NCBI GenBank assembly: GCA_965206955.1
Contig: OZ242252.1
Span: 2,179,771-2,243,770 of the forward strand
Length of the DNA: 64,000 nucleotides
Direction: 5' to 3'
From: Candidatus Foliamicus sp.
GTDB taxonomy: Bacteria; Pseudomonadota; Gammaproteobacteria; Steroidobacterales; Foliamicaceae
The notes under the pieces were generated by a model. It had not been told where the DNA came from. It ran no database searches and saw only the letters and a list, made by a program, of their open reading frames with translations. Below, piece by piece: positions 5,106 to 58,978 of this stretch (position 1 is the first letter of the stretch; every line of letters begins with the position of its first letter). The position numbers and the translations under genes were made by a program.

Positions 5106-5122
5106 CGTCAAGGAGCAATGCG

Positions 5123-6250: not shown

Positions 6251-6772
6251 TCAGTAATTGAGGGCCAGTGTTCGCGGTTGGCCGAAACCGGGCAGGCTGA
6301 TCAGGTGAAGACGCCCGGGACCGAAGTCGGCGAACTCCAGAGCGCCGGCGTCCCATTCCGCCAGCAGGGCCGACGCCAGACTGGTGGGGGCCACGATGAT
6401 CACGACCCTACCGCGGTATTGTCTCTCCAGCCCTCGCGCGAAGCCGGCGGGCTCCTCGATCAAAACGTCGGCAATGGGCTCCCGGAGCCGTTCGGCCAGC
6501 AAGCGTACGGTTTCGCGCTCGGGTTCTCCTCCGGCGCTCAAGATTCCGCCGAGCAGCTCCGGCTTGGCGAGATCTCCCACCAGCCGGCTCAATGCCTGGG
6601 AACTCGCCTTTCCTTCGGCGCTGAGCGATGCAGAATCACCGTCTTGCCGCTGGGCGGCTGTCAGCAGCAGCACAGTGGTAGTCGCCTCGCTGCCCTGGAG
6701 GCGCCAGAACAAAACCAGAACGCCGACAAGAAAAGCGGCGACCAGCAGATTGCGGTATCGGGCGCGCATCAA
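6251..6772 (-). CDS. hypothetical membrane-anchored protein (possibly a degenerate histidine-phosphatase fold)
   Basis: 173-aa ORF with an N-terminal TM (LLVAAFLVGVLVLFW). It shows weak SixA-like layout but lacks the RH catalytic dyad. Confidence 0.5.
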   Translation of the reverse strand: MMRARYRNLLVAAFLVGVLVLFWRLQGSEATTTVLLLTAAQRQDGDSASLSAEGKASSQALSRLVGDLAKPELLGGILSAGGEPERETVRLLAERLREPIADVLIEEPAGFARGLERQYRGRVVIIVAPTSLASALLAEWDAGALEFADFGPGRLHLISLPGFGQPRTLALNY

Positions 6773-6876
6773 TTTCAGTTGGCAGCCAGCACGGACATGA
6801 GGCCGATGGTACTACTCCGATCCGCGTAAAATAAAGAGGTTGCGGAAGCGTTTCCGGAAAAAAGCGAGGCGACTCT

Positions 6877-7074
6877 TTGTTCGATTGGTATATGTTCATT
6901 ATGGATAACATTGGCGCAGTCGTTGCTGTCGTTCTCGTACTGTTCAATCTCGCCATATGGGTGGCGAGGCGGGTTCGTCAGAAACGTGAGCAGGAACGTT
7001 ACGGGCAATATCCTCCGGCCGTACGATCAGGCCGTTTGAACTATGACGAATACAAAAAGCGACGCGACGGCTGA
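6877..7074 (+). CDS. possible small single-pass membrane protein
   Basis: 65-aa ORF with a hydrophobic core (IGAVVAVVLVLFNLAIWV) followed by a basic tail. No clear RBS. Confidence 0.3.
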   Translation: MFDWYMFIMDNIGAVVAVVLVLFNLAIWVARRVRQKREQERYGQYPPAVRSGRLNYDEYKKRRDG

Positions 7075-7155
7075 TTCGTGCATCAAGTATGGAAAGGCTC
7101 CTCCGTCGTTTGCCGGTGGTATGCTTGAATAACTTGCGTGGATAGACCAATAGAC

Positions 7156-8394
7156 ATGAAAACCATAGTTCGCATATTGGGTGTTTCCTTAGCGCTGTCC
7201 GCGGGGCTGCTTCTCGGAAGTTGCAAGACCGTTGGCGGAAATTCTCCGCCGTCGGGCGGTTCCTCGGTTCCCATGCCTTCGCCCGGCGGCAGTTCCGGAT
7301 CATCCGGTGGCGCGGGCGGTTCGATGGGCTCGTCCGGAGGCTCGATGGGTTCCGCGGGCGGTTCGATGGGCTCGTCCGGAGGCTCGATGGGTTCCGCGGG
7401 CGGTTCGATGGGCTCGTCCGGAGGCTCGATGGGTTCCGCGGGTGGCTCGAAAGGCTCGTCCGGAGGTTCAATGGGTTCCGCGGGTGGTTCGATGGGCTCG
7501 TCCGGAGGCTCGATGGGTTCCGCAGGCGGCTCGATGGGCTCGTCCGGAGGCTCGATGGGTTCCGCGGGCGGCTCGAAAGGCTCGTCCGGAGGCTCGATGG
7601 GTTCCGCGGGTGGCTCGAAAGGCTCGTCCGGAGGCTCGATGGGTTCCGCGGGCGGTTCGATGGGTTCCGCGGGCGGTTCGATGGGTTCCGCGGGCGGTTC
7701 GATGGGCTCGTCCGGAGGCTCGATGGGTTCCGCGGGTGGCTCGAAAGGCTCATCTGGCGGCTCAAGGAGTTCTTCCGGTGGCGCCAGTGGTTCATCTGGA
7801 AGCTCCAGGGGGTCAGCCGGCAGTTCAGCAGGATCGGCCGGTGGCGGCATGGGAACAGGAGGCGGTCCCAGCGGCGGACAAGGCAGTGGCGCAAGCGGCT
7901 CCGGCGGCTCCGGGGATCCCGAAGGCGTTCTGCGTGAATCCATGGAAGGATACGATCGCGAAATCGCTCGTGAGCGCGATGCTATGGCTTCATCCGGGCA
8001 AGGAACACCTGGCGGTAGCGGCGGCATGGGTGGTACGACAGGCGAAGGCGGCGGAGCCGGCGGGCCAATGGTGACTATCCCCAGCATGTCTGGAGGCAGT
8101 TCCGGCGGCGGCCAGGGTGAAGGTGGCGAAGCCGCAGGCGGCAGAGCTAGGGGCGGTGGCAGCGGAGGCGCCGGCGAGAGCGGCCTGGAGGAAGGCGACG
8201 GCAGCAATGCCGGTGACCAACCCGAATCGAAGATTGATATTCCGGAAGATATCGCCGAAGCCACGGGCAGCGAAGACCAGGTAGCGCGGCAGATACGCGA
8301 GGCGGCGGAACAGGAAGAGGATCGACGTATTCGCGACGCGTTGTGGGAAGAATATCGCAGGCACATGGGACTGAAATCAGCGAGGTCGAAGTGA
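7156..8394 (+). CDS. lipoprotein with 21 tandem Gly/Ser heptads and an acidic C-terminal helix
   Basis: MKTIVRILGVSLALSAGLLLGSC lipobox. Positions 7315-7755 hold 21 x 21-bp units encoding GGSMGSS/GGSMGSA/GGSKGSS. C-terminus: EDQVARQIREAAEQEEDRRIRDALWEEY. Confidence 0.8.
   Translation: MKTIVRILGVSLALSAGLLLGSCKTVGGNSPPSGGSSVPMPSPGGSSGSSGGAGGSMGSSGGSMGSAGGSMGSSGGSMGSAGGSMGSSGGSMGSAGGSKGSSGGSMGSAGGSMGSSGGSMGSAGGSMGSSGGSMGSAGGSKGSSGGSMGSAGGSKGSSGGSMGSAGGSMGSAGGSMGSAGGSMGSSGGSMGSAGGSKGSSGGSRSSSGGASGSSGSSRGSAGSSAGSAGGGMGTGGGPSGGQGSGASGSGGSGDPEGVLRESMEGYDREIARERDAMASSGQGTPGGSGGMGGTTGEGGGAGGPMVTIPSMSGGSSGGGQGEGGEAAGGRARGGGSGGAGESGLEEGDGSNAGDQPESKIDIPEDIAEATGSEDQVARQIREAAEQEEDRRIRDALWEEYRRHMGLKSARSK
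7315..7755 (+). repeat. 21-bp (42-bp super-period) coding tandem repeat
   Basis: ggcggttcgatgggctcgtccgga / ggctcgatgggttccgcgggc alternate, with occasional aaa (Lys) variants. I counted 21 heptads in the translation. Confidence 0.9.
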
Positions 8395-9620
8395 ACAGAA
8401 CAACAACCTTCGTCGGCATAGCCGCGTGCGCCGTGCTTCTGGGAGCATGCACGTCGGCGCGCGAGATTCAGTACACCCAGGTGAGACTGAATCGCGCGGA
8501 GACCGAGATTGCCCAGGAAGCTCTGCTCAATGTGGGAATCCTGGTGTTCGATCCTGGTTTGCCGGAGAACTTGAGTGACCAGGAAATGAACGAAAAGCTG
8601 ATTTTCCCGGAAATTCGGCGCGCGGAGGCGCGCTACATGCCGTTTCACCTCAAGAACACGCTGGAGTCCACGGGTTATTGGGGCGCAGTGAGTGTCTTGC
8701 CGGAGTTCAGTCCGGTTGCGGACATCCTTATATCGGCGCGGATCGAAGAATCGGATGGTTACAGTGCCAAGCTGCAGGTTGCCGCCTGGGACGCGTCGGC
8801 GAAGGAGTGGTTCAACAAGAGCTACGAAATGATGGTGGCGGAACAGGCTTATGTGCGCAACACCGACCGCGGCCAGGATCCGTATCAAAACCTCTACAAC
8901 GAGATCGCCAACGATCTGCTGCAGGTCCGCTCCCAACTCAGCGATGCCGAGTTGCAGCGGATACGGGAAATAGGCGATTTGCGCTACGGCCTGAGCGTCG
9001 TGCCGCAGGCGTTCGAAGGCTACCTGGAAAAGACCGACAAAGGGCATTACCAGGTCAAGAGGCTGCCGGCAGAAGATGAACCCATGGTCGGCCGCATGCG
9101 CGAGGTCCGAGAGCGTGAATATGCACTTGTTGATGCGGTGAATGAGCACTACGCGAACCTGTACTACGGTCTGGATGAACCGTACGCGGACTGGCGGCGG
9201 ATGGCGCGCGAAGGCCGCCTGAGCTACGAGGAAATGCGAAGTGCCTCCAACACGCGAATGTTGCTGGGTATTCTCGGAATCCTGGGCGCAATCGCCTACA
9301 ACGACCGTGGCGGCAACAACAGGGCCGTCACCCAGACGATGATCCATGGCGGCATCATGGGCATCCAGGCGGGCCTGGGTCGGCGCGCGGAAGCCAAGAT
9401 GCATGCCGAGGCGCTACGCGAAGTGGGTGAGTCCTTCGACGCCGAGGCCGAGCCCATGGTGGTGGAACTGGAAGGTCAGACCCGGCGGCTGACTGGATCT
9501 GCGGAAGAACGCTTTCGGGAATGGCGCCGTTTGCTGAGGGAGATTTACAGCCGTGAGACCGGCAATCTCGAAATGCCAGGCGCTGCCAACTCCCAGGAAA
9601 CAACTCCGCCGCGACCCTGA
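8391..9620 (+). CDS. lipoprotein of unknown function with a C-terminal glycine-zipper-like hydrophobic segment
   Basis: The GTG at 8391 overlaps the upstream stop (GTGA). Lipobox FVGIAACAVLLGAC. Late segment MLLGILGILGAIAY...GGIMGIQAGLG. Confidence 0.75.
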   Translation: MNRTTTFVGIAACAVLLGACTSAREIQYTQVRLNRAETEIAQEALLNVGILVFDPGLPENLSDQEMNEKLIFPEIRRAEARYMPFHLKNTLESTGYWGAVSVLPEFSPVADILISARIEESDGYSAKLQVAAWDASAKEWFNKSYEMMVAEQAYVRNTDRGQDPYQNLYNEIANDLLQVRSQLSDAELQRIREIGDLRYGLSVVPQAFEGYLEKTDKGHYQVKRLPAEDEPMVGRMREVREREYALVDAVNEHYANLYYGLDEPYADWRRMAREGRLSYEEMRSASNTRMLLGILGILGAIAYNDRGGNNRAVTQTMIHGGIMGIQAGLGRRAEAKMHAEALREVGESFDAEAEPMVVELEGQTRRLTGSAEERFREWRRLLREIYSRETGNLEMPGAANSQETTPPRP

Positions 9621-9762
9621 ACGCGAGCGCATCGGTCCAGGTACTGCCTTGCGATCGCCCGGCAGGCGAATTCGCCCGCCTTCGCCCGTATCATTCGCCC
9701 CACGGTGAGGCGCAGGTGCTGGCGTGCGTAACAATTCAATAAACAAACCACGCGAAGGCGGG

Positions 9763-32236: not shown

Positions 32237-35200
32237 TTAGAAGGATTTGTGGAGTGACAGGCTGTACGCGCGGCCCTGAGTCCACTCATAGACGGGATTC
32301 ACTCGGTAGTTCAAAGTCTCGCCCGTTTCAGGGTTCAACCTGGTGGATTTTGCGTATGCATCCGTAATGTTGTTGACCGTCAGGGTTGCGCTGAAGTTGT
32401 CCATCCATGCCGGTGCGTCAAACAGGGAATCCTCTCCAAATTCGTAACTCAGCACCAGGTCGTAATTGGCGGCCGGCTCGGTAATGAAGTGGCTCGTGGC
32501 TATCCATTTTCTGACCACATCGTCGGAGTCCTGCATGTCAAGGCTGAGGAACAGGCCGCCGCGCGCCCAGGTAATTTGCATGCTGGTCTGGTGCCTGGGA
32601 ACCGGCAGGATGGTTACTTCTTCCTCACCGGTATCGTCACGCTGCCCCACAAGGTCGTGCACAACTTTTGAGATGGCGGATTGTTGAACGTCATAACGAT
32701 TGGTGTATGAGCGCCGTAGCTTAACGCCGAAGTCGTTGAGTCCCCGGCTCCACTCATAGCGGAGCTCGTAATCCACGCCTGAACGGTTGACGGCGTAGCT
32801 GTTGATCCAGCGCTCGTCAAGCACGTACAGGTCATCATCCGGAAAATAGGTAAGGGTGGGAGGAAGGTTGTTCAGGTCTTCAACGATCCCCGTGCTGAGC
32901 TTCGAAATGCGATTGGTGAATTCCGTGTCGCTCCAGCCAACCTTGAACAACAGGCCCGGCAGGAAGGCAGGTGTAAGTTCCGCCACCAGGCTGAGGTTCT
33001 CGGCGGTCTCAGTCTCCAAAGTATCGTTGCCGCCCCTTAACTTAACCACGCCACGCTGTATGACAAATTCGCCGTTCTCGTCGACGTAAACAAAGAGACT
33101 GAATGGGCTCGGATCCAATCGCTCCACCCGCTGCAGCAATTGGTTCAGTTGCGGCGCGACAAAGGAAGTGCTGAACTTGCCCCGAAACTGCATGGCGCCG
33201 TTGGGTCGGTACACCAGCCCTCCACTCCATGTGAACTCGCTTCCGGGGTCATCGGCATCCAGTGCGCCGGCATCGCCATTGGAACTCTGGCCGTATTCCA
33301 CTTCCGCGTTGGAATAAGAATCGTAACGGCCTGAAAAGGTGAGGCTCAACTGTTGCACGCCTGCCATGGCATTGCCTGAACCGACCAGTGGAACCAATCC
33401 TTCCACGAATCCCGAGTGGCTGGCACGGCTGATGCGCGTGTTGAATGCCGTATAGCCCGTGGGTGTGTCATTGCTCAGGAAATTACCCAGCAATGCCAAC
33501 TCAGAGAAGGAATCCAGCACATCCTCACGGTAATCGTAGCCTACCGCCAGCGCAACGGGTCCGCCCGGGGCGTTGAACAGGTTACCGCGCGCCAGCGCTT
33601 CAAACTGCTGTTGCTCGTTTTTGGACCCCGCGTCCAGGCCGGGGATGATATATGGATTGGCGTCGGCAAAAGGATTAACGGGATCAGGCGGCTGGCCGAG
33701 AACACGGCAGATGCCGATGAAGAAGCGATTAGGGGTGTAGGTGTAGCTCCAGCCCCCTAACTCTACCCGTCTGGCCTCACACTGCTCCTCGGTAACACGA
33801 AGCAGAAACGCTATCGCGGCGCCGGTTACTCCATCGCTGTTCAGGCCGCGAGTATAAGAACTGTCAAGGACGTTGTAACGAGTGGTGGCGATTTTCTGCC
33901 GCGAGGAGCTGTACTCGGCCTGCCAGGTCCAGCTTCCCAGCGAACCCTCGGCGCCGAGCCGGGCAAACATCTCGTCCGTCTGGGACTCATAAGTTTGCGG
34001 TGGAGTGCCAACCAGCAAGCCAACTATCCGCACCTGAACTCCGAAAGGGTTAAAGGGGTTATGTTCGTGCAGAATCTGAGTACCAAGAGAGCTCGTAGCG
34101 TTGAGTCCGTCGCCGGAATTGGAATCCTTCCTTGTCATACGCAGGTTGGCGTGCAGGGCCAGCGAATCCGTCAATTGCTGATCCACGCCCAGGTTCACTG
34201 TGTTGTAACTCTGTTCCGGTCGCAGGCTATAGCCCTCCTCGGCCTCGCCGCGCCAGTGCTGCTCGCCGAATAGTTCGATGGAATTAAGATCGTCCGTGTG
34301 CTGGAACCCAAGCGGCAGGGTTACGTCCTCGCGGCACGTTGCATTGGCCTTGCCGGCCTCGTCCAGCGCCAGGTAATCGGCGTGGGTAACCTTACTCCCA
34401 TCCGCCAGTTCCCATAGCACCGGCAACTGGGCAAGACGATTGGTCCGGTGGGGTGGGGGCGGGCAGTCACCACTCGTACGGTGGCCGAAAATCCGCCATT
34501 GCGGGCCGGCCGCCGCCTGTTTGTTCCCGGGGGTGTAGCCCAGATCAGTGCGTAAAGGAATAACAGCCGAATCCCGTTGCGAGGCATCCAGCCCGGAATC
34601 CTGGAAGTGCTCAAAACCAAACGTGGCTCGCCCTCCTGACCATGCCAGTCCGGCGGCCAGACTTACTTTCCTTTCGTCATAGCCGCTCTTATGCGGGCGG
34701 GAATAGTTGATGTCGAGTTCCACACCCGAGTAGTCCTGCCGGGTAATGATGTTCACTACGCCGCCCACCGCGTCCGACCCATACACGGCGGATGCCCCAT
34801 CCAGCAAGATTTCAACCCGCTCAACCATGGATAAGGGGATCGTGGAGATGTCGGTGACACCACCCAAGATTCCGCTGTAGCCAACCCGGCGGCCGTCCAC
34901 CAGGATCAGCGTGGATTCGCTGCCCAGGCCGCGCAGGTTCACGGTGGCGGCGCCGGTCTTGTTCCCGGCCGTGTTCAACAGCGAGCCGTAGGTCTCGTTG
35001 GTTGGGTTTGCGTTCTGGGGCAACTGACGGAGCAATCGCGCCAAAGTGAGTTCTCCACTCGCTCTAATGTCATCGCGGTCCAGCACGATGAGGTTGCCGG
35101 AGATCTCCGACGGCGAGCGGCTGAGCCGGCTGCCGGTTACCCGGACGTCCTCCAACTGCAATGCCTCGTCTTCTTCATCGTCCGCATCTTCCTGAGCCGA

Positions 35201-35308
35201 CGCGAAGTTCAGGCTGAGCGCCAAACCGGCGAGTATTGCCAGCATGAGGGAAGCAGCCAAGTGAAAACTGCGCCACCCGCGCAGGCAGAGGTTTGCAGAG
35301 TGTGCCAT
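32237..35308 (-). CDS. TonB-dependent receptor (large, ~1020 aa)
   Basis: Signal peptide, acidic linker, plug (LEDVRVTGSRL, VERVEILLDGASAVYGSDAVGGVVNIITR) and terminal ...SLSLHKSF. Start at MAHSAN (35308) or 35365. Confidence 0.9.
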   Translation of the reverse strand: MAHSANLCLRGWRSFHLAASLMLAILAGLALSLNFASAQEDADDEEDEALQLEDVRVTGSRLSRSPSEISGNLIVLDRDDIRASGELTLARLLRQLPQNANPTNETYGSLLNTAGNKTGAATVNLRGLGSESTLILVDGRRVGYSGILGGVTDISTIPLSMVERVEILLDGASAVYGSDAVGGVVNIITRQDYSGVELDINYSRPHKSGYDERKVSLAAGLAWSGGRATFGFEHFQDSGLDASQRDSAVIPLRTDLGYTPGNKQAAAGPQWRIFGHRTSGDCPPPPHRTNRLAQLPVLWELADGSKVTHADYLALDEAGKANATCREDVTLPLGFQHTDDLNSIELFGEQHWRGEAEEGYSLRPEQSYNTVNLGVDQQLTDSLALHANLRMTRKDSNSGDGLNATSSLGTQILHEHNPFNPFGVQVRIVGLLVGTPPQTYESQTDEMFARLGAEGSLGSWTWQAEYSSSRQKIATTRYNVLDSSYTRGLNSDGVTGAAIAFLLRVTEEQCEARRVELGGWSYTYTPNRFFIGICRVLGQPPDPVNPFADANPYIIPGLDAGSKNEQQQFEALARGNLFNAPGGPVALAVGYDYREDVLDSFSELALLGNFLSNDTPTGYTAFNTRISRASHSGFVEGLVPLVGSGNAMAGVQQLSLTFSGRYDSYSNAEVEYGQSSNGDAGALDADDPGSEFTWSGGLVYRPNGAMQFRGKFSTSFVAPQLNQLLQRVERLDPSPFSLFVYVDENGEFVIQRGVVKLRGGNDTLETETAENLSLVAELTPAFLPGLLFKVGWSDTEFTNRISKLSTGIVEDLNNLPPTLTYFPDDDLYVLDERWINSYAVNRSGVDYELRYEWSRGLNDFGVKLRRSYTNRYDVQQSAISKVVHDLVGQRDDTGEEEVTILPVPRHQTSMQITWARGGLFLSLDMQDSDDVVRKWIATSHFITEPAANYDLVLSYEFGEDSLFDAPAWMDNFSATLTVNNITDAYAKSTRLNPETGETLNYRVNPVYEWTQGRAYSLSLHKSF

Positions 35309-39378: not shown

Positions 39379-42300
39379 TCAGAAGGACACGTGTATGTTC
39401 AGACGATATGACCGACCTTGCGTCCACTCATAGAAAGGGTTGATGCTGTAATCCTCAATCTCGCCCGTTTCCGGATTCAACTCGTAATTGTCAGCATAGG
39501 CGTCGGTCAGGTTGTTGATCGTAAGAGTGGTGCTTACGCCGTTCAGCCAAGCGGGTGCATCGAAAAACGTGTCATTGCCGAATTCGTAACCAATGACCAT
39601 GTCGTAGATTGTCGCCGGCTTGGTTACGTATTCCAGATTCGAAGAATAGCGCGTGCGGGTTTCGGCAGCGCCCTGCAGATCAAGGCTGAGGAACAATCCG
39701 CCGCTTGTCCAAGTGAATTGCATACTGGTCTGGTGCTTGGGAACCGGATACAGCAGCGCTCTACGCGGCGTCGTGTTGTCCTTCACTGTCAGGAGGCTCT
39801 GGACATCGTCCTGAGCAGGATCAACCAGAACATCAAACCGGTTTGTGTAGGAGCGCCGGGTCAAAATGGAGAAGTCATTGAGGCCCATTGACCAGTCGTA
39901 GCGAAACTCAAAGTCAATGCCGGTGCGATTTACGTAGGAAACATTGACCCAGCGGTTATCGCGCAGGTAAATGTCTTCTGCCGGATCGTAGATAACATTG
40001 CTGGGAAGATTATTGGGGTCGATGTTTGTAACCGAACGGAAATAGGCGATGCGATCCTCGAACTGCGTGTCGCTCCAGCTGGCCCGAAGGAAAACTCCAG
40101 GCAGGAAATTAGGCGAAATCTCGGCAGTTACACCAATGGTTACGGCTGTTTCGGGTACTAGCTTGTCGTTGGCGCCAAGGTTGTCAAAGACGTTGCCTTG
40201 GGCCTGCGTTCTATCCTGTGAGTCCGGTTCCGTGAAGTACAGTCCTTGGAAGGCCGGCGCTGCAATACGCTCCCGGGTACGTTGAATCAACTGGTTCAAT
40301 TGCGGAGCAACGAAAGCCGTTTGCCGGTCGGCCTTGAACTGCAGCTCGTCGTTGACCCGCCACACGATGCCCGTGCTGTAGGTGAATTCGCTACCCGGGT
40401 CGGCGGGTTCGTCCGTTCCGGCCGATCCGGATCGGGTTTCGCGGTAGTGCACTTCCACATTGGAATATGAATCGTAACGGCCAGAGAATGTCAGGTTGAA
40501 GCGCTGAACGCCGGCCATCGCATTGTCGCTGCCGATCAGTGGTATCAACCCCTCAAAGAAGCCGGCTTGGGTCTGACGGCCGATGGAAGTGTTGAATGCT
40601 TCGGCGCCTGCCGGCGAGTCATTCGGGCAAGCAACCGGCGAGCATTGGCCGCCGGAGGCGTGAAACTCCGAAAAGGAATCAAGCACATCTTCGCGGTAGT
40701 CGAAGCCCACGACCAGCGCTATCCTGCCTCCCGGTGCGCTGAACAATTCTCCGCGCAATGACGCCTCGAACTGGGTTTGCTCGTTCTGTGAGCCGCTGTC
40801 CAAGCCCACTGCAAGATACGAGGATAAGTCGCCAAAGGGGTTGATGGGTGTCGGTGGAGCGCCGTAGACGCTGCAGTTTCCGCCGAAGAAGGACGAATAG
40901 CTAAAGCGCGTGCCGCCGATTTCCATTTGCTTCGCTTCGCATGCGGCCCGGTCGATTCCACTGAATCTGCCGATGATTGCCTCAGTTACACCGTCGCTGT
41001 TCATTCCGTTGCGGATGGCGTTGGAATTTACAACGTTCATCTGCCGGGAAGCAATCTCTTGCTCCGAGCGGCTGAATTCCCAGTCCCAGGCCCAGTTGTC
41101 GCTGAATGATCCATCCATGCCCAGCCGGGTGAACAATTCGTCCGTATCGGAATCGAACAAGCGTGGCGGCGTGTTCGGAATCTGGCCAAAAGCTGTGACG
41201 GTAATGCCAAACGGGTTGTAGGGACTATTGCCATGGAAGTTACCGTAGAAGACATTTATCCCGCTGTTTGAGATGGTCTTCTTGGAGCCCCAACGTACAT
41301 TGGCGTGCGCCGTAATGGTGTCCGTGATGGCCTGATCAACGGCCATGTTTACAACATTCTGGTCCTGTTCGGGTCGCAGGCTATAGCCTAATTCAGCACC
41401 CTCTCCGAACCCGGCTGCACCAAAGAGATCGATCGAATTAAGGTCGTCGCCCGGCATAAAGCCCAGAGGCACGGTGATGTCCGCATGACAAGTTGCCATC
41501 GCCTGACTTTCGGCGCCCAGCGCGGCGTATTCATCGCGCGTAAGGATATTGCCGTCGAGTTCATACACGATGGCTCTGGCCTCATTACAGGAACGATCGA
41601 AGAAGTAGCTAAACATGCGTACCTGAGGTCCCGACAGACCGCGCTGCTGTGTACCGGAATCATCACGGTTGGCAAGAATGATTGAATCCCGATTCGAAGC
41701 ATCGAGTCCGGAATCGCGGAAATATTCGTAACCCACGTTGATGCGACCACCGTCCCACGCGAATCCGCCAGCTAGGTTTGCCCGAGTTTCATCAAATCCA
41801 CTCTTATGTGGACGGCTGTAATTCAAGTCTAGTTCAATGCCGGAATAATCCTTCCGCGTAATGATGTTTACTACACCTCCAACGGCATCCGAGCCATATA
41901 CGGCGGAAGCGCCGTCCAACAGAATCTCAATTCGGTCCACCATCGAAAGCGGGATGGTGGAAATATCGGTGACGCCGCCCAACAGGCCGCTGTAGCCAAT
42001 GCGCCGCCCGTCCACCAGAATCAGAGTGGATTCACTGCCGAGCCCGCGTAAATTTACGGTTGATGCTCCGGTAATGTTGTTTGTTCCGTTAAGGTCCGAA
42101 CCGTACGTCTCGTTCGTACCGTTTATGTTTTGGGGCAGTTGACGAAGCACGCGGGCCAGCGTCAACTCGCCGGAAGCACGGATCGCATCCCTGTCCAAAA
42201 TGATGAGATTGCCCGAGAGCTCGGATGGTGAGCGATTCAGCCGGCTGCCGGTGACCCTTACGTCACTCAGCTCCAAGGCTTCTTCGTCTTCCTCGTCCGC

Positions 42301-42426
42301 ATCGTCTTCCTGGGCAAGCGCAAAGTTCATGCTGAGCGCCAACCCGGTGAAAATCGCCAGCATCCAGGAGCAGGCCAGGCCCGCTTTGCCCAAAGCGTGG
42401 CCGAAGGGTTTATCGGAATGTTCCAT
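39379..42426 (-). CDS. TonB-dependent receptor, paralogue of 32237-35308
   Basis: Near-identical plug region (SGNLIILDRDAIRASGELTLARVLRQLPQN, STLILVDGRR) and C-terminus YEWTQGRSYRLNIHVSF. Confidence 0.9.
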   Translation of the reverse strand: MEHSDKPFGHALGKAGLACSWMLAIFTGLALSMNFALAQEDDADEEDEEALELSDVRVTGSRLNRSPSELSGNLIILDRDAIRASGELTLARVLRQLPQNINGTNETYGSDLNGTNNITGASTVNLRGLGSESTLILVDGRRIGYSGLLGGVTDISTIPLSMVDRIEILLDGASAVYGSDAVGGVVNIITRKDYSGIELDLNYSRPHKSGFDETRANLAGGFAWDGGRINVGYEYFRDSGLDASNRDSIILANRDDSGTQQRGLSGPQVRMFSYFFDRSCNEARAIVYELDGNILTRDEYAALGAESQAMATCHADITVPLGFMPGDDLNSIDLFGAAGFGEGAELGYSLRPEQDQNVVNMAVDQAITDTITAHANVRWGSKKTISNSGINVFYGNFHGNSPYNPFGITVTAFGQIPNTPPRLFDSDTDELFTRLGMDGSFSDNWAWDWEFSRSEQEIASRQMNVVNSNAIRNGMNSDGVTEAIIGRFSGIDRAACEAKQMEIGGTRFSYSSFFGGNCSVYGAPPTPINPFGDLSSYLAVGLDSGSQNEQTQFEASLRGELFSAPGGRIALVVGFDYREDVLDSFSEFHASGGQCSPVACPNDSPAGAEAFNTSIGRQTQAGFFEGLIPLIGSDNAMAGVQRFNLTFSGRYDSYSNVEVHYRETRSGSAGTDEPADPGSEFTYSTGIVWRVNDELQFKADRQTAFVAPQLNQLIQRTRERIAAPAFQGLYFTEPDSQDRTQAQGNVFDNLGANDKLVPETAVTIGVTAEISPNFLPGVFLRASWSDTQFEDRIAYFRSVTNIDPNNLPSNVIYDPAEDIYLRDNRWVNVSYVNRTGIDFEFRYDWSMGLNDFSILTRRSYTNRFDVLVDPAQDDVQSLLTVKDNTTPRRALLYPVPKHQTSMQFTWTSGGLFLSLDLQGAAETRTRYSSNLEYVTKPATIYDMVIGYEFGNDTFFDAPAWLNGVSTTLTINNLTDAYADNYELNPETGEIEDYSINPFYEWTQGRSYRLNIHVSF

Positions 42427-42497
42427 GTTGTTTCTCCTCAGTGCAACGGAGAGCGTGGAAATCGCGCCCCATTAGCAGGGCTACTATACACCTTTGG

Positions 42498-42515
42498 ACC
42501 GTCCAATTGGACGGT
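42498..42515. promoter_or_regulatory. perfect 18-bp palindrome upstream of the TonB-dependent receptor gene
   Basis: ACCGTCCAATTGGACGGT lies ~70 nt upstream of the receptor ATG at 42426. Confidence 0.4.
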
Positions 42516-42614
42516 GTGCTTGACGCTTCCTTGGGGCCGTAGAGGTGCTGCGAAGCAACCGGCTTGCTTGCTCCGGCTGGCCATTGCAGAAGGGTTCAAG
42601 CGGCCCTTAAGTGG

Positions 42615-42671
42615 TAGAATTGAAACTGTCTCAATTGTTGCGCGCCGCCTCTGTCGCGGCGCGTTTTTTGC
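42615..42671 (+). promoter_or_regulatory. gyrA-type promoter (-10 TAGAAT with upstream TG) and leader hairpin+U6, copy A
   Basis: gTGgTAGAAT at 42611-42620. Hairpin cgcgccgc(42641-48)/gcggcgcg(42656-63), then TTTTTT (42664-69), then GC-ATG. Confidence 0.5.
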
Positions 42672-43064
42672 ATGCCCGGCCCAACCCCCGAAATCGTCCC
42701 GGTAAAGCTCGAAGAAGAGATGCGCCGGTCCTATCTGGACTACGCGATGTCTGTCATCGTGGGGCGTGCTTTACCTGACGTTCGCGACGGTCTAAAGCCG
42801 GTCCACAGGCGCATCCTGCATGCCATGCGCGAACTCGGAAATCTGCACGATCGGCCGTACAAGAAATCGGCCCGGATTGTCGGTGACGTCATAGGCCGCT
42901 ACCACCCGCATGGCGATACGGCCGTGTACGACGCAATCGTGCGCATGGCGCAGGATTTCTCGCTGCGTTATCCGCTGGTGGACGGACAGGGCAACTTTGG
43001 TTCGGTGGACGGGGACTCGCCGGCCGCCATGCAACTTTCTTTAGGGGCTTGGCAAGGACATTGA
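42672..43064 (+). pseudogene. gyrA: truncated duplicate of the gyrA 5' end (codons 1-120 plus 10 unrelated codons)
   Basis: Near-identical to 45726-46086. It diverges after ...DGDSPAAM into [10 protein letters not shown]-stop, two codons before the catalytic Tyr of the AAMRYTE motif. Confidence 0.9.
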
Positions 43065-43224
43065 AGGCGAGCTGAAGAAGGCGCGTTCCGTCCTCGTTTG
43101 GGAGTTCGTAGCTGGCGCGCCATGCAAACGCTCTCAAAGAACCTACAGATCAGGTGTATGCCGGGGGCGTTGCCCAGGTAGGTGCGGAACACGACGGGGC
43201 AGCCGTTTCCGCAGGAAGTTCCGG

Positions 43225-43614
43225 TTAAAGCGTTTCCAGACCCAGATGCTCCTTGATTGGATCAAAGTCCCGGTCGGAATGGAGCAGAATATGCCTGTTC
43301 TCCATGCAAAAGGTTGCGATCAACATGTCGATGGTCTTGCGCACCGTCACCCCTTTGGCGCGAAGGGTGCGGTAGTTGCCGGCGCTGATCAGGGCGATGT
43401 CCCGTCCCACCATGGGTTCGAATATAAGGGTGTCCAGCGCCGCACGCGCTCTACGAACCTCGTGATCGGAGCGAAAGCCTTGTAAGACCTCAGCGAGGAT
43501 AAGGTCGCCGATAACAATTGGCTCCAGGCCGAGAATGTCATCGAGCAGCGCGGTTTCTCGAGTCTCGACACCTTTGAAGTAGTCAATCCAGACGGAGGAA
43601 TCGACCACGATCAC
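43225..43614 (-). CDS. vapC: VapC PIN-domain toxin
   Basis: MIVVDSSVWIDYF..., 129 aa, 4-nt overlap with the upstream antitoxin. Confidence 0.9.
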   Translation of the reverse strand: MIVVDSSVWIDYFKGVETRETALLDDILGLEPIVIGDLILAEVLQGFRSDHEVRRARAALDTLIFEPMVGRDIALISAGNYRTLRAKGVTVRKTIDMLIATFCMENRHILLHSDRDFDPIKEHLGLETL

Positions 43615-43805
43615 CGGTCGCGCCGCATCTCGTCAAGCGAGCCTTCCCAAGGTAGCTTTCCGCGCAACCGCCGGACTCGTCCTTGCGCCTGGGTTCGCAC
43701 CAGCAGGCGCAATGCTTCTTCAACGGCGGCCCTCTTGGTCTTGAATCCCCCCGCCTTCAGCGCCTCCGCCATCAGGTTGTCATTGATCTCGATATTGGTG
43801 CGCAT
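43611..43805 (-). CDS. vapB: VapB-type antitoxin
   Basis: MRTNIEINDNLMAEALKAGGFKTKRAAVEEALRLLV, 64 aa. Confidence 0.85.
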   Translation of the reverse strand: MRTNIEINDNLMAEALKAGGFKTKRAAVEEALRLLVRTQAQGRVRRLRGKLPWEGSLDEMRRDR

Positions 43806-43817
43806 CGCAGCCTCCCA

Positions 43818-43846
43818 TGTGTATTATCACAAGAATTATACACATT
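43818..43846. promoter_or_regulatory. inverted repeat in the vapBC promoter region (putative operator)
   Basis: ATGTGTAT (43818-25) ... ATACACAT (43839-46), immediately upstream of the vapB start. Confidence 0.4.
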
Positions 43847-43985
43847 GAATACACGGCAAATAGTCGCCCAGCAGCGCTTCGCGCTCATCTTTCATAACCC
43901 GCCCACGCACGCGAGGATGGTCCTGACAGGCAGGTACGGCAGGAACGGGATATGCTTGTATAGCGTTTTCAATTAGGAGCTGATT

Positions 43986-44210
43986 ATGCTTGCCATCCGG
44001 CTGCCCGCCGAAGTGGAAGACCGCCTTGAAGCACTGGCGCAGGCCACTGGGCGCACCAAAACCTTTTATGCCCGCGAAGCGATCCTTGAGCACTTGGATG
44101 ACCTCGAAAATTTGTATCTCGCGGAGCAGCGGTTGATCAATATTCGTGCAGGCAAAACCCAAACTGTGCCACTCGCAGAAGCGATGAGGCCCTATGGAAT
44201 GGAGGGTTGA
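43986..44210 (+). CDS. ribbon-helix-helix (RelB/ParD/CopG-type) antitoxin
   Basis: MLAIRLPAEVEDRLEALAQATGRTKTFYAREAILEHLDDLEN, 74 aa. Confidence 0.8.
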   Translation: MLAIRLPAEVEDRLEALAQATGRTKTFYAREAILEHLDDLENLYLAEQRLINIRAGKTQTVPLAEAMRPYGMEG

Positions 44211-44466
44211 GTTTGACCCCGCAGCAGGACGGGAGTTAGGGAAGGTCGACCCACAGATAGCGCGGCGCATCCTCGCCTTTCTGCAAGACCGGCTCGTCCA
44301 TATCGATAACCCGCGTAGCGTCGGGAAAGCCCTTTAAGGTTCCACGCTGGGCGAGTTCTGGAAGTACCGCGTCGGCGACTATCGAATCATTGCACACATC
44401 GAGGACGACGCATTGCGCATCCTTGTTGTGCGCATTGGCCACCGCAGGTCGGTCTACAGGAAATAG
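44194..44466 (+). pseudogene. relE: RelE/ParE-family toxin interrupted by an in-frame TAA
   Basis: Manual translation gives MEWRVEFDPAAGRELGKVDPQIARRILAFLQDRLVHIDNPRSVGKAL-TAA(44335-44337)[42 protein letters not shown]. Same frame throughout. Confidence 0.8.
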
Positions 44467-44921
44467 AACAGCTTTGCGGCGCTGTGTCCAGCGCCGGCGG
44501 GGTCATGCGCCAAGCGTGCCCGGAAGGCGGCGGGCGTCAGTATCGGCACGGCAAATGTCTGGCTCAGCGCCAGCAGATCCTTATCGCCGGTGATCAAGGC
44601 ATCGGCATTGGCGGTCAACGCCAGTTCCAGAAACGGGCGGTCGAAAGGGTCGCGGCAATCGGGAACCTTGATCCGGTTCGGCGCGGTGACAGTTTCGCAC
44701 CATGGCAAATAATCGCCCAACAGGTCTTCGCGTTCATCGTTTGTCAGGCGAAACCTGGGATAGGACAGAACCCGGATCAGTTCCTCCGCGGTGTCGCGGC
44801 TTACCAGCGGACGGATGGCATCCGATTGCCATGCTGATCGCAGCCAGGGCAGGGCGCCCGCATGAAACAGGAGAGCTGAAAGCACGACATTGGTGTCGAG
44901 CACCGTGCGGGGCGGGGTCAT
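44454..44921 (-). CDS. PIN-domain toxin (TIGR00305-like)
   Basis: [19 protein letters not shown]...LITGDKDLL. Start ATG at 44921 with a 4-nt overlap with the antitoxin. The ORF-track 278-aa version is over-extended. Confidence 0.8.
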
Positions 44922-45160
44922 GCGCCAGACTTGCCCCCGTCGCGCGCCCAGGATATGGCCTGGGCTACGTCGTCCTCCGTAATCCCCAACTCGGATAGCT
45001 TGGCTCGCACGGCGTCGCTGCGATTGACCCGCACCGGCGTCAGCACGATACGCCCGTTGTCCTCCGTTACGTCGAAATATTCCGTGCTGCGACACGAAGC
45101 CAGCACTGCCTTGGGCAGAGTCAACTGATTCTTGGATGTCAGCTTGGCAAGCATGGCCAA
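44918..45160 (-). CDS. AbrB/MazE/SpoVT-family antitoxin
   Basis: MAMLAKLTSKNQLTLPKAVLAS... looped-hinge-helix motif, 80 aa. Confidence 0.8.
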   Translation of the reverse strand: MAMLAKLTSKNQLTLPKAVLASCRSTEYFDVTEDNGRIVLTPVRVNRSDAVRAKLSELGITEDDVAQAISWARDGGKSGA

Positions 45161-45274
45161 TCCTCAAGTAAGGAAACAAGGATGTAAGGATACAGTACAT
45201 TCGATACGCATGCCGAGATACGGAAACTTGAACAGAGCGGCATTCCCGTTCCCCATGCAGAGGCGGTAGTCGAT

Positions 45275-45583
45275 ATGGTGACCAGAGCACCGATCAATAC
45301 ACAGGTGGCCGAGGGCCTGAGGCGCTTGGAGCGCCTGGAGCAGCACATTGAGACGAATATGGCCACCAAGGCCGATCTCGCGGCCGTAGCCGCCAATCTG
45401 GAGCGCCTGGAGCGGCACGTTGAGGCGAACATGGCCACCAAGGCTGACCTCGCAACGTTGCGCACCGAGACTAAGGCCGGCCTGACGGCCCTGCGCGCTG
45501 ACTTGTATCGCGCGCTATGGCTTCAAGGCGGGGCGCTCGCGGGGCTGATACTGGTGCTCGCGGGATACGCTCTGACCTCGTAA
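45275..45583 (+). CDS. small coiled-coil membrane protein (DUF1640-like)
   Basis: Internal repeat LERLE(Q/R)H(I/V)E(T/A)NMATKADLA x2 and a C-terminal TM GGALAGLILVLAGYAL. Confidence 0.6.
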   Translation: MVTRAPINTQVAEGLRRLERLEQHIETNMATKADLAAVAANLERLERHVEANMATKADLATLRTETKAGLTALRADLYRALWLQGGALAGLILVLAGYALTS

Positions 45584-45668
45584 CGCCGCGCAAAAAAGGG
45601 GCGAGGAAAGGCCAAGCCGCGTTGTCCTGATTGATGGGGAATGCCGCTTGTTCTGACCCGTGAAGTGG

Positions 45669-45725
45669 TAGAATTACAACTGTCTTAATTGTGTTGCGCC
45701 GCCTTTCCCGCGGCGCGTTTTTTGC
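45669..45725 (+). promoter_or_regulatory. gyrA promoter (-10 TAGAAT) and leader hairpin+U6, copy B
   Basis: Same layout as copy A. Stem gcgccgc(45696-702)/gcggcgc(45710-16) with a different loop (ctttccc vs ctctgtc), then T6, then GC-ATG. Confidence 0.5.
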
Positions 45726-48311
45726 ATGCCCGGCCCAGCCCCCGAAATCGTCCCGGTAAAGCTCGAAGAAGAGATGCGCCGGTCCTATTTGGACTACGCG
45801 ATGTCTGTCATCGTGGGGCGTGCTTTACCTGACGTTCGCGACGGTCTAAAACCGGTTCATCGGCGCATCCTGCATGCCATGCGCGAACTCGGAAATCTGC
45901 ACGATCGGCCGTACAAGAAATCGGCCCGGATTGTCGGTGACGTCATAGGCCGCTACCACCCGCATGGCGATACGGCCGTGTACGACGCAATCGTGCGCAT
46001 GGCGCAGGATTTCTCGCTGCGTTATCCGCTGGTGGACGGACAGGGCAACTTTGGTTCGGTGGACGGGGACTCGCCGGCCGCGATGCGCTACACGGAAATC
46101 CGCATGGCGCCGATCGCCACCCTGATGCTGGCGGATATCGACCGTGACACGGTCGATTTCGTTGAAAACTACGATGGCGCGGAGAGCGAGCCCACCGTGT
46201 TGCCCGCCCGTCTCCCCAACCTGCTGGTCAACGGGGCGTCCGGCATTGCCGTGGGGATGGCAACCAATATTCCGCCACACAATCTGCGTGAAGTGATCGA
46301 TGCGGCGCTGGCTTTGAGCAACGACCCGGAAATCGGAATCACGGAGTTAATGGGATATGTGCCTGCGCCGGACTTTCCGACCGCGGCAATGATCGTGGGC
46401 GAGTCCGGCATGACCGAGGCCTACAACACCGGGCGCGGAAGCATTCTGATGCGCGCGCGCGCGGAGGTGGAAGAGGGGCCGGCGCGTAACTCGATCGTGA
46501 TCACCGAACTCCCCTACCGGGTCAACAAGGCCCGCTGCGTAGAGAAGATAGCGGTTCTGGCGCGCAAGAAGCAGATTCCGGGCATTCACGAGGTTCGCGA
46601 CGAATCCGACAAAGACGGAATGCGCATGGTGGTGGAGCTGCGGCGCGACGCCGTCCCGGACATTGTTCTAAACAACCTGTACCGGCGCACGCCGCTGGAG
46701 TCCACTTTCGGGATCAACATGGTGGCGCTGTGCGGAGGACGGCCGCAACTGCTGAATCTCAAGGAAATGCTTGAGCATTTCCTTGCTCACCGCCGCGACG
46801 TGGTTACTCGTCGCAGCGTCCACGATCTTCGCCGGGCCAAGGCGCGCGCGCACGTCCTGGAGGGACTGACCGTGGCGCTGGCCAATATCGATGAGGTCGT
46901 GTCCCTGATCAAGGCTTCGCAAAACGCCCAGGAAGCCCGCGAAGCTCTTACCGCACGAATCTGGGCGCCGGGCGCGGTGCGCGGCATGCTGGAACGGGCC
47001 GAGGCCGGCCCGCTGGAACTGCCCAACCTGAGCGACCGGGGGTATCGCCTTACGGAAGTTCAGGCACGAGCGATCCTGGAACTGCGTCTGCAGCGCCTGA
47101 CCGGTCTGGAGCAGGACGCCATCCTCAAGGAATACGCCGGCCTGCTGAGGACAATGCAGGAACTGACCGAAATCCTGCGTGATCCCGACCGCCTGCTGGC
47201 GGTGGTTCGCGATGAACTTGTGGAGCTGCGCGACGAGTATGGCGACGAGCGGCGGACCGAAATCATTGCCGATTACAGCCGCACCGCCGACGAGGACCTG
47301 ATCCCGCGCCGCGAGCTACTGATTACGCTTTCCTGGCGGGGCTACGTCAAGACGCAGGAGCTGGAGACTTTCCGCACCCAGGGACGCGGAGGCCGAGGTA
47401 AGCGTGGCGCGTCGGTGGGTCAGGAGGATTTCATCGATCAACTCTTCGTCGCGCAGTCTCACTCCACGCTGCTGTGCTTTACCGATCGCGCCCGCGTATT
47501 TCAGATCAGGCCGTTTGAGATTCCAACCCAAAGCCGTGAAACCCGGGGGTTGCCGATTGCCAACCTGCTGCCGGGGCTGGAAGAGGGTGAGCGGGTCAAT
47601 TCCGTCTTGCCGGTGGAATCCTTTGACGATAGCCGGTTCGTGTTCATGGCCACGCGCCGTGGCCGGGTCAAGAAGACCCGTCTGGACGCCTTTGCCAGGA
47701 TTCGCCGGACTGGAATCTACGCATTGAGCCTGAAAGGCGACGACCGGTTGGTGGAAGCGGCGATTACCGATGGTGATAGCGACGTCATCCTGTTGGCCAG
47801 CAATGGCCGCGCCGCCCGCTTTTCGGAGACGGCCGTGCGACCCATGGGGCGAACCGCAAGGGGCGTGATCGGCCAGCGCCTGAAGAAGAAACTATGGGTA
47901 GTGGCGGCATTGATCGTCAGTGCCCAGGACGCCGAGCGCGAAGACGTTTGGGTGCTGCAGGCCACCACCGAGGGATTCGGCAAACGGACCGTTGTGAGCG
48001 AATTTCCGCGCAAGGGCAGGGGGGCGCAGGGAGTGATTTCCATCCGCACGGAGGGCCGTAACGGCCAATTGATCGGCGCCGCACTGGTCCGGTCGGGCCA
48101 TGAGGCAATGCTCATGACGGCAGGCGGCACGTTGCTGCGCACGGCTGTTGACGACGTGTCGGTGCAGGGCCGGTATTCGCATGGGGTACGCCTGATGCGA
48201 CCGGACAAAGGCGACCAGGTCGCGGTGTCATGCACACTGGCAGTGGATCAGGGGGAAGATGAAGCCGACGGCTCAAGCCCGGGTCGAGTGGTCGGCGAAA
48301 ATGTCGATTGA
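45726..48311 (+). CDS. gyrA: DNA gyrase subunit A
   Basis: Full-length 861 aa. [21 protein letters not shown], catalytic AAMRYTEIR and C-terminal beta-pinwheel repeats. Confidence 0.98.
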
Positions 48312-48490
48312 ACGCCCCTGGGAGGTAGGGCGTCCTCCTGGGAACGAGGGCGTCCTCCTGGGAACGAGGGCTTCCTCCTGGGAACGAGGGCTTCCTCCTG
48401 GGAACGAGGGCTTCCAGCCCTCGACGAGGGCAGGATGCCCTCGTTCCCGGCGCGAGGGCAGGATCCCCTCTTTCCCAGGGGTGAGGGCGA
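48312..48490. repeat. REP cluster with 4 x 20-bp half-units
   Basis: CCTGGGAACGAGGGC(G/T)TCCT is repeated, then GAGGGCTTCCAGCCCTCGACGAGGGCAGGATGCCCTCGTTCCC. Confidence 0.9.
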
Positions 48491-48517
48491 GACGCCCTTT
48501 TCCCAACGGGAATGAGA

Positions 48518-49597: not shown

Positions 49598-49688
49598 AGG
49601 ATTGACTTGGCACGCGCGACGAAGGCAGGATGCGCTCGCTGGGAACGAGGGCGTCTCGCTCCCCGATCAGCGTCGGGGACAGGCTCTC

Positions 49689-49970
49689 GACGAGGGCTGG
49701 AAGCCCTCGGTCCCAGGGATGCGCTCGCTCCAAGGGCAACGCCATCGCTGGCGGAAAGGCTTTCTGCTCTTGACGAGGGCTGGAAGCCCTCGGTCCCAGG
49801 GATGCGCTCGCTCCAAGGGCAACGCCATCGCTGGCGGGAAGGCTTTCTGCTCTCGACGAGGGCTGGAAGCCCTCGGTCCCAGGGATGCGCTCGCTCCAAG
49901 GGCAACGCCATCGCTGGCGGGAAGGCTTTCTGCTCTTGACGAGGGCAGGATGCCCTCGGTCCCAGGATCC
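49689..49970. repeat. 83-bp tandem repeat (3 full units plus a partial) built around REP hairpins
   Basis: Units start at 49689, 49772, 49855 and 49938: GACGAGGGCTGGAAGCCCTCGGTCCCAGGGATGCGCTCGCTCCAAGGGCAACGCCATCGCTGGCGG.AAGGCTTTCTGCTCT. Confidence 0.9.
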
Positions 49971-58902: not shown

Positions 58903-58978
58903 TGGCTCCCCGGGCCGGACTCGAACCAGCGACAAATTGGTTAACAGCCAACCGCTCTACCAACTGAGCTACCGGGGA
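58903..58978 (-). tRNA. tRNA-Asn (anticodon GTT)
   Basis: Reverse complement TCCCCGGTAGCTCAGTTGGTAGAGCGGTTGGCTGTTAACCAATTTGTCGCTGGTTCGAGTCCGGCCCGGGGAGCCA folds as a cloverleaf by hand: 7-bp acceptor stem, anticodon loop CTGTTAA, TTCGAGT T-loop and encoded CCA. Confidence 0.95.

Follow-up and report, generated by a model that had tools for sequence, protein, structure and literature searches.

Campbell-type integration of a suicide plasmid leaves a direct duplication of a segment, with a 3'-truncated copy first and a complete copy after the insert, and is reversible by recombination between the repeats. SXT inserts at prfC and replaces the 5' end of that gene, and Vibrio superintegrons carry toxin-antitoxin (TA) cassettes. 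The dusA-specific genomic islands insert at a gene 5' end and bring a replacement 5' end (PMC4482086), and a TA system maintains SGI1 (PMC5006074). Described here is a locus with elements of each of these layouts, located at the DNA gyrase gene gyrA in a 64,000-nucleotide window from Candidatus Foliamicus sp. (Gammaproteobacteria; GenBank assembly GCA_965206955.1, contig OZ242252.1, forward strand, positions 2,179,771 to 2,243,770; window coordinates are used below). In this locus, TA genes lie between a truncated copy of the gyrA 5' end (c1) and a second copy (c2) that forms the start of the functional gene. A search of a literature collection found no description there of integration into gyrA or of a gyrA 5' duplication. 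The locus is read as the scar of a single, old insertion-duplication at the gyrA 5' end, dating from the ancestor of a clade and followed by recombination of the inserted modules, and this reading is given a probability of roughly 0.68.

Self-comparison of the window shows a gap-free direct repeat of 424 bp, 42609-43032 against 45663-46086 (offset 3054, 96% identity), spanning gyrA from -63 through codon 120; only this segment is doubled in the window. The working gene takes its promoter, leader and first 120 codons from the second copy, which is in frame with the remaining gyrA, and the first runs into the cargo DNA, so that its ORF comprises GyrA residues 1-120 and a 10-residue tail read from the cargo. 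The features of the locus are listed below (L numbers denote homologous loci in other genomes).

39379-42426, minus strand: TonB-dependent receptor gene (ORF; Pfam Plug/TonB_dep_Rec), the ancestral divergent neighbour of gyrA, which it adjoins in L096 and L101
42427-42608, no strand: S0, native TonB-gyrA spacer 5' of c1
42609-43032, plus strand: c1, relic gyrA copy (-63 to codon 120: promoter, leader hairpin, 5' coding part)
42672-43064, plus strand: gyrA' ORF, 130 aa, read as a pseudogene (PF00521 over residues 32-120)
43033-43154, minus strand: J1a, 3' remnant of a DUF7689 gene (91% identical to L099 9363-9482)
43155-43224, minus strand: J1b, flank 3' of vapC, common to c1-less relatives
43225-43614, minus strand: vapC toxin gene (PIN; PF01850; NF047959 VapC, 162 bits)
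43611-43805, minus strand: vapB antitoxin gene (PF09957, E 3.6e-15)
43839-43907, minus strand: remnant of another PIN_3 toxin gene (tblastn to PIN_3 residues 56-78, 61% identity)
43986-44210, plus strand: RelB-like ribbon-helix-helix (RHH) antitoxin gene (PF05509/RHH; NF048017, 110 bits)
44194-44466, plus strand: relE/stbE-type toxin pseudogene (TAA at 44335-44337)
44454-44921, minus strand: PIN_3 family toxin gene (PF13470, E 1.4e-20; TIGR00305)
44918-45160, minus strand: AbrB/MazE-like antitoxin gene, partner of the PIN_3 toxin (PF04014, E 3e-4)
45196-45583, plus strand: gene for a CCDC90-like (PF07798-type) small coiled-coil membrane protein, its start lost by a 167-bp deletion
45584-45662, no strand: J2, a repeated module of 70-85 bp adjoining the functional gyrA at -63, with more copies inside the cluster in relatives
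45663-46086, plus strand: c2, promoter, leader and codons 1-120 of the working gene
45726-48311, plus strand: functional gyrA, 861 aa

The repeat begins 3 nt 5' of the extended -10 element TGGTAGAAT (42612-42620) and ends after codon 120 (...DSPAAM), one codon ahead of the RY in AAMRYTE, the motif with the catalytic tyrosine (Tyr122 in E. coli). Within the repeat, c1 and c2 differ at 16 positions: nine fall in the promoter and leader (63 nt) and seven in coding sequence (codons 5, 22, 42, 44, 45, 46 and 119); two further mismatches, at 42606 and 42608, bring the total to 18, and weak similarity extends back to 42604. The sole amino-acid difference is at codon 5 (Thr in c1, Ala in c2), the codons of the quinolone resistance-determining region (QRDR) are the same in both copies, and the last 225 bp contain a single difference, at 43028. 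An earlier note, made from the sequence alone, had described the ungapped alignment of the two segments, and this description is confirmed, as is its remark that all coding substitutions other than Thr/Ala at codon 5 are silent; its estimate of ~15 early substitutions gives way to the count of 16 over the full repeat, and its zero differences for the last ~220 bp missed one. As a separate feature of both copies, a GC-rich hairpin (GCGCCGCC-loop-GCGGCGCG) followed by T5-6 lies between the gyrA -10 and the ATG (42640-42668 and 45695-45721), with no obvious Shine-Dalgarno sequence. It occupies the same position in L005, L096, L097, L101 and L103, with a stem that is invariant over ~15% GyrA divergence and a variable loop, and looks like an attenuator or terminator before an essential gene.

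The resemblance to Campbell-type integration lies in the duplicated segment, in the order of truncated copy, insert and complete copy, and in its reversibility through recombination between the repeats, such an exchange being seen in L098/L091 (below). Unlike the laboratory case, this is a natural and ancient one in an essential gene, with no vector, replicon or marker and with a circular donor that is only supposed, and the fragment begins just 5' of the -10, so that the complete copy is self-sufficient.

The empty site is seen in outgroup loci obtained by GyrA look-up (L096 and L101/L102, 87-89% identity). Their gene order is redoxin (AhpC), TonB receptor, gyrA, serC, serA, the receptor adjoins an unduplicated gyrA, and there are no TA genes; a single gyrA copy therefore stands in the context of the truncated copy, as expected of an insertion-duplication. 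The TonB-gyrA spacer is 245 bp long in L096 and 223 bp in the other outgroup lineage, and in the window the receptor start and the c1 ATG are likewise 245 bp apart (42427-42671). A native upstream motif (GCCCTT/AAGTGG; GCGCCTT in L099) is kept in all c1 copies and also stands before the gyrA of outgroup L096, with a less exact version in L103, and the last ~10 nt of S0 (GCGGCCCTT) resemble the DNA preceding the functional gyrA in L096, L103 and L091. The L096 bases 5' of -63 (GCGCCTT/AAGTGATAGAATTGAC) match c1 and not c2, and J2 stands upstream of every functional copy but that of L091. The spacer length and the c1-like upstream bases of L096 identify c1 as the original gyrA start in its native location. 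The comparison with relatives lacking the island, which the earlier note had proposed, thus located the empty site, and synteny and upstream motif agree with its placing of the truncated upstream copy in chromosomal context. Neither the nearest species representative in GTDB (Ca. Foliamicus sp., GyrA 85% identical) nor any of 79 further gammaproteobacterial species carried a second gyrA 5' fragment or homologues of the cargo. The empty sites came from the GyrA homologue look-ups; a 22-mer from the left flank (CATTGCAGAAGGGTTCAAGCGG) had no match in JGI metagenome contigs, and searching for exact matches to SerA and to the 102-aa coiled-coil ORF gave nothing new.

The founding joint lies at 43032/43033 (gyrA +360/J1a). 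J1a follows every full-length c1, and the tails of the c1 ORFs are frame variants of J1a; this joint, with J1a-derived tails, occurs in the window species, L098, L099 and L100, and in none of the best database matches from outside the clade. J1a is 100% identical in four strains of the window species, and a blast search with its 122 bp against all loci matched only genomes of arrangement A (below), its origin being resolved by the longer version in L099. There, the c1-vapC interval of 457 bp holds one minus-strand ORF with a match to PF24738 (DUF7689, E 9e-8), whose TTG start overlaps the vapC stop, and the joint lies ~11 nt past the DUF7689 stop codon; the window has lost all of the DUF7689 gene but its final 122 bp. 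A single deletion, with one end at +116 and the other in the 5' part of the DUF7689 gene, accounts for the shortened type A' (below) if the starting state was L099-like, and these comparisons show that the gyrA(+360)/cargo joint had a single origin. The DUF7689 ORF (L099 9362-9824, minus strand, ~150 aa), missed by the gene caller, is a translationally coupled third gene after vapB-vapC, and vapB-vapC-DUF7689 suggests a three-gene variant of VapBC.

The c1-to-J1 joint recurs in ERZ25071097, ERZ25071132, ERZ28763718, ERZ25072038, ERZ26167216 and ERZ25068966, and a variant of the 130-aa ORF is present on an additional 362-kb contig. Three other ENA assemblies carry the exact 130-aa c1 product and the entire layout, each with its own substitutions and indels, and three further assemblies carry variant joints; at least seven other assemblies have the +360 joint, megabase contigs among them. 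One of the sister strains has a 136-bp vapB deletion, and two have an intact relE. In L003/L001 (ERZ25071097 contig_5), the 136-bp deletion (equivalent to window 43711-43846) removes the start and promoter of vapB and leaves vapC, 99% intact, apparently as an orphan toxin gene.

A look-up with the RelB-like protein led to ten related genomes with gyrA at 89-94% nucleotide identity, in which the cluster takes several forms. Type A, found in the window species and in L099 (whose contig ends inside the cluster), has the order c1, J1, vapCB, relBE, PIN_3/AbrB, coiled-coil gene, J2, gyrA, and L100 is of type A with the TA block tandemly doubled. In type A' (L087, L090 and partly L093), c1 ends at +115 (39 codons, a 179-bp remnant) and is followed by 'filler' and vapC. 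L098 has a complete c1, separated from the receptor by an insertion sequence (IS) fragment and a second coiled-coil gene. Type B (six genomes) has no gyrA fragment, carries extra J2 copies within the cluster and shows a circularly permuted order, PIN_3/AbrB, coiled-coil gene, vapCB, relBE, PIN_3 fragment, J2, gyrA; the A-to-B permutation of modules would fit circular intermediates without proving them. L097 has PIN_3 and RES/Xre TA genes and a J2-like piece upstream of gyrA; its cluster has at the far end a decayed gyrA fragment (-63..+95) whose -10 is destroyed. In a neighbour-joining tree of gyrA +361..+2400, c1 or its shortened form c1' occurs in all three ingroup subclades, and L096 and L097 form a sister pair. 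The occurrence of the same modules 5' of gyrA in relatives that have no c1, or only the 179-bp remnant, argues that the cargo represents resident TA modules of the clade and neither a recent nor a discrete foreign element. As to simple tandem segmental duplication, no head-to-tail doubling of the whole unit is present in the window. No identification was obtained for the 'u' segment of type B or for a 226-bp block that precedes both the L098 c1 and the L091 gyrA. Separately, a 243-aa ORF in the TA cluster of L098 (3132-3863, minus strand) has a C-terminal part that by eye is like a DDE (IS4/IS5-type) transposase, and IS-related genes lie upstream in L003 (DUF772) and L087 (DDE_Tnp_1).

The relation between the two copies was traced through their differences. 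Over +116..+360, they differ at 1-6 sites within the window species, as against 9-29 sites to any other genome, and both copies are therefore species-typical. In L004, c1 and c2 share variants at 42734-42794 that are absent from other strains. The window-type c1 has two private mutations (-40C and Ala5Thr), neither of which occurs in any functional copy; both are shared with L098, supporting common descent. The L099 c1 has 15 private changes (7 non-synonymous, 5 synonymous), several of them at invariant GyrA residues. These patterns mark c1 as a pseudogene whose similarity to c2 is maintained by gene conversion and which is decaying in L099, where conversion has not refreshed it. The L098 c1 locus (4668-5250, including 226 bp of unique upstream DNA) matches the DNA upstream of the functional gyrA of L091 (6255-6836) at 94.5% over 583 bp, showing that exchange between c1 and c2 has occurred in nature. 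The flanks are mosaic: L004 has a receptor of 63% identity but an island of 95-100%, and in L093 S0 is 100% identical and c1' 90%. Such contrasts suggest that homologous recombination has been frequent and that its breakpoints lie at the edges of the gyrA copies or within them. The receptor gene next to c1 (39379-42426) has a paralogue at 32240-35260 (54% identical), and its 63% identity to the L004 allele (6738-9755), between flanking DNA of 95-98%, suggests allele replacement or diversifying exchange.

A single insertion-duplication would account for these data as follows. In the ancestor of the clade, a group of uncultured gammaproteobacteria related to Ca. Foliamicus, TA-operon DNA would have become joined to gyrA at +360 and at -63, thereby doubling the 424 bp between the joints. 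Because gyrA is essential, survival would have been possible only if the event rebuilt a complete gyrA with its own extended -10 promoter, which would explain a repeat that starts 3 nt 5' of this element. The c1 copy would have been left in the native TonB-receptor/gyrA spacer as a pseudogene, and c2 in the working gene. The TA modules were afterwards permuted, tandemly duplicated, truncated and replaced. In repeated conversions c2 overwrote c1, which in some lineages was cut back to +115 or +95 or disappeared altogether, and c1-c2 recombination removed or moved cargo. Either of two routes may have founded the structure: integration, through one crossover, of a circular molecule bearing a gyrA fragment, or template switching or staggered breakage that duplicated the segment on insertion. 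Both leave the same product, and the routes are therefore not separable here. The event is taken to be old and inherited, neither recent nor a live mobile element, and would either predate the L096/L097 split, with L096 reverted, or be followed by movement of the block between lineages. Of the Campbell-type integration proposed in the earlier note, the layout (truncated copy, cargo, intact self-promoted gene) and the native context of c1 are retained, and the foreign circular element is not.

It is plausible that the three TA modules hinder loss of the segment through repeat recombination, since cells without them would be killed. The locus is in this respect like the stabilising chromosomal TA clusters, with several type II operons in a repeat-flanked, losable segment, high module turnover and common remnants. 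Unlike in those clusters, some of the toxins and antitoxins here are inactivated, and stabilisation is a proposal.

Several observations weigh against this history. L096, which has the empty site, groups with the remnant-bearing L097, and either L096 has lost the insert by recombination between c1 and c2 or the cluster has spread between lineages by homologous recombination. The L097 remnant could be an independent event, its original 3' joint being gone. The junctions at 43032/43033 and 45662/45663 are without informative microhomology, and the founding mechanism is not readable from the sequence. Stabilisation by TA modules is undercut by the relE pseudogene in the window and by the loss of half of vapB in L003, and addiction would therefore be leaky at best. 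Finally, all genomes compared are metagenome assemblies.

Among the other explanations, the one that survives best, though it is still unlikely, is a foreign circle resembling a plasmid or an integrative and conjugative element (ICE), which carried its own gyrA 5' segment, entered by a single crossover and now supplies the promoter and QRDR part of the gene. The architecture is exactly that of an insertion-duplication, with c1 in native context and c2 behind the non-native J2, and single TA modules have plasmid relatives, relBE being 82% identical to an Aeromonas plasmid module. However, the collections of plasmids, against which the earlier note had suggested searching the cargo, and those of phages gave no match for the cargo as a unit and no replicon carrying the duplicated segment together with the cargo, only single TA modules (relBE, PIN_3/AbrB), and the modules are resident 5' of gyrA in c1-less relatives. 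There are no replication, transfer or integration genes. The copies are nearly identical and species-typical over +116..+360, including the QRDR, and c2 is no more divergent from the outgroups than adjacent gyrA: it is closer to them (87-88%) than are the adjacent 314 bp of the gene (~80%). A foreign QRDR was rejected on the +116..+360 distances given above; with these and with QRDR codons identical in c1 and c2, the suggestion in the earlier note that an element supplied this part of the gene is not supported.

Somewhat less probable again is that the gyrA'-TA-gyrA layout constitutes a selfish island without an integrase. Such an island would enter relatives with a plain gyrA by homologous recombination through the conserved gyrA flanks and leave by recombination between c1 and c2, with the TA modules penalising loss, and its existence would explain both a block shared across species-level divergence and breakpoints clustered at -63 and inside the gyrA copies.

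A site-specific element that targets the AAM/RYTE site and restores the gene with a replacement 5' end, its integrase lost or acting in trans, is improbable. The repeat does end, on its right side, a single codon short of the RY in the highly conserved AAMRYTE, and there are known elements that rebuild the 5' end of the gene they enter (PMC4482086). As with the dusA and SXT islands, the target is kept working by a new 5' end and promoter at the distal end, with a relic 5' fragment opposite. Those islands, in contrast, recombine att sites by means of a tyrosine integrase, have short cores and use the same nucleotide in many taxa, none of which applies here. ORF and family searches found no integrase or transposase between the copies, as the earlier note had observed, the ORFs there being TA genes, remnants or the CCDC90-like gene; no integrase was found in the island or within 10 kb, and called genes within ~10 kb in the window or homologous loci had no recombinase Pfam match. 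The 424-bp repeat far exceeds an att core, and no att-like core was found. There is one joint type in one clade, with freely variable cargo content, and 0/80 other species representatives have a second gyrA 5' fragment, so that the site-specific option offered by the earlier note is not supported. Among the 120 best-scoring matches to the 130-aa c1 ORF, nearly all of them short GyrA N-terminal ORFs, 23 sequences were inspected, and in these, truncations with a J1 tail are confined to the clade; recurrent gyrA truncation at codon 120 in other taxa was rejected, the other short GyrA ORFs on long contigs reading through RYTE, and these are taken for frameshifted or interrupted genes. Two short GyrA ORFs of other lineages on large contigs, P0186 and P0130, end at ~residue 185 and may represent genes frameshifted or interrupted at one and the same conserved site.

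It is at least as doubtful that c1 has been retained as useful, either for a GyrA(1-120) peptide (a decoy or GyrB binder) or as a supercoiling-sensitive promoter antisense to DUF7689-vapC-vapB. The extended -10, leader and ORF are intact in several lineages, with very few amino-acid changes, and c1 is oriented into the 3' end of the vapBC operon; but gene conversion from c2 accounts for this conservation, the unrefreshed copy of L099 gains non-synonymous changes at conserved GyrA residues, and only 39 codons are left in L087, L090 and L093, the -10 is destroyed in L097, and c1 is absent in six relatives. An assembly artefact (a collapsed or expanded repeat), which has nothing in its favour beyond the general risk of metagenome assembly and which the earlier note had asked to be checked, is effectively excluded by the recurrence of the +360 joint in at least seven independent assemblies, with strain-specific substitutions and indels inside and outside the repeat.

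If it arose as proposed, the locus offers a natural and well-resolved case of insertion-duplication affecting the start of an essential gene. Fixation of such a duplication is possible only if a complete, self-promoted gene is recreated, and the relic is then long-lived and homogenised by gene conversion. The DNA 5' of gyrA in this clade is a hotspot at which TA modules are gathered and reshuffled by recombination alone, with no dedicated recombinase nearby. The short GyrA ORF (130 aa here, 124-151 aa in relatives) is a pseudogene, and gyrA-based typing or QRDR calling could take the wrong copy. The locus is neither a new class of mobile element nor a gyrase-targeting toxin system, the RelE/StbE-like toxin being no demonstrated gyrase poison.

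Family searches confirmed the cargo recognized in the earlier note (vapBC, an RHH antitoxin with a relE pseudogene, a PIN/AbrB pair and a coiled-coil protein). The VapBC, RelBE and PIN_3/AbrB modules have the predicted gene layout of type II TA systems, with adjacent or overlapping small genes that carry the family domains (PF01850 with PF09957, RHH/NF048017 with RelE/ParE, and PF13470 with PF04014, respectively), and a plasmid homologue pair of the PIN_3/AbrB module is annotated as PIN toxin and AbrB/MazE. The RelB-like antitoxin is 100% conserved across 20 contigs. The nonsense TAA of relE is GAA in other strains, sister strains have an intact 90-aa gene, and the intact copy of L004 gives a sub-threshold match to TIGR02385. 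The translation of J1b resembles, by eye, a C-terminal peptide remnant of PIN_3. The CCDC90-like gene, which encodes 132 aa in relatives and has an internal 55-nt repeat, is left with a 102-aa ORF from 45275.

Two further candidates for the nature of the cargo were rejected. One was a ParE-type gyrase poison tied to gyrA. The precomputed Pfam label of the relE toxin (PF05016) covers RelE and ParE jointly; with a RelB-like equivalog as antitoxin, and with RelE/StbE, below cutoff, as the sole NCBIfam match of the toxin, a functional tie to gyrase is not indicated. An integron cassette array was rejected in the absence of IntI and with J2 not attC-like: unlike the Vibrio superintegrons, the locus has neither an integron integrase nor attC, and J2 (70-85 bp) is its sole repeated boundary module. 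By eye, J2 is without RYYYAAC/GTTRRRY ends, and its weak hairpin (z = -2.05) shows no convincing covariation. Relatives (L085-L100) have 2-3 copies of J2 per TA cluster, and a J2-like piece lies at L097 7807-7847, always with the same end point; J2 may act as a recombination substrate, a promoter region or a REP-like element.

Rfam gave no match in the gyrA/TA locus, and the only Rfam/ARAGORN match in the window is a tRNA-Asn (GTT) at 58903-58978 on the minus strand. Downstream of gyrA, serC is flanked by tandem repeats, with 20/40-nt and 28-nt units before it (48327-48505) and an 83-nt unit repeated 3.4 times at 97% identity after it (49683-49966). These arrays contain long spurious ORFs on both strands, and their copy number varies between strains.

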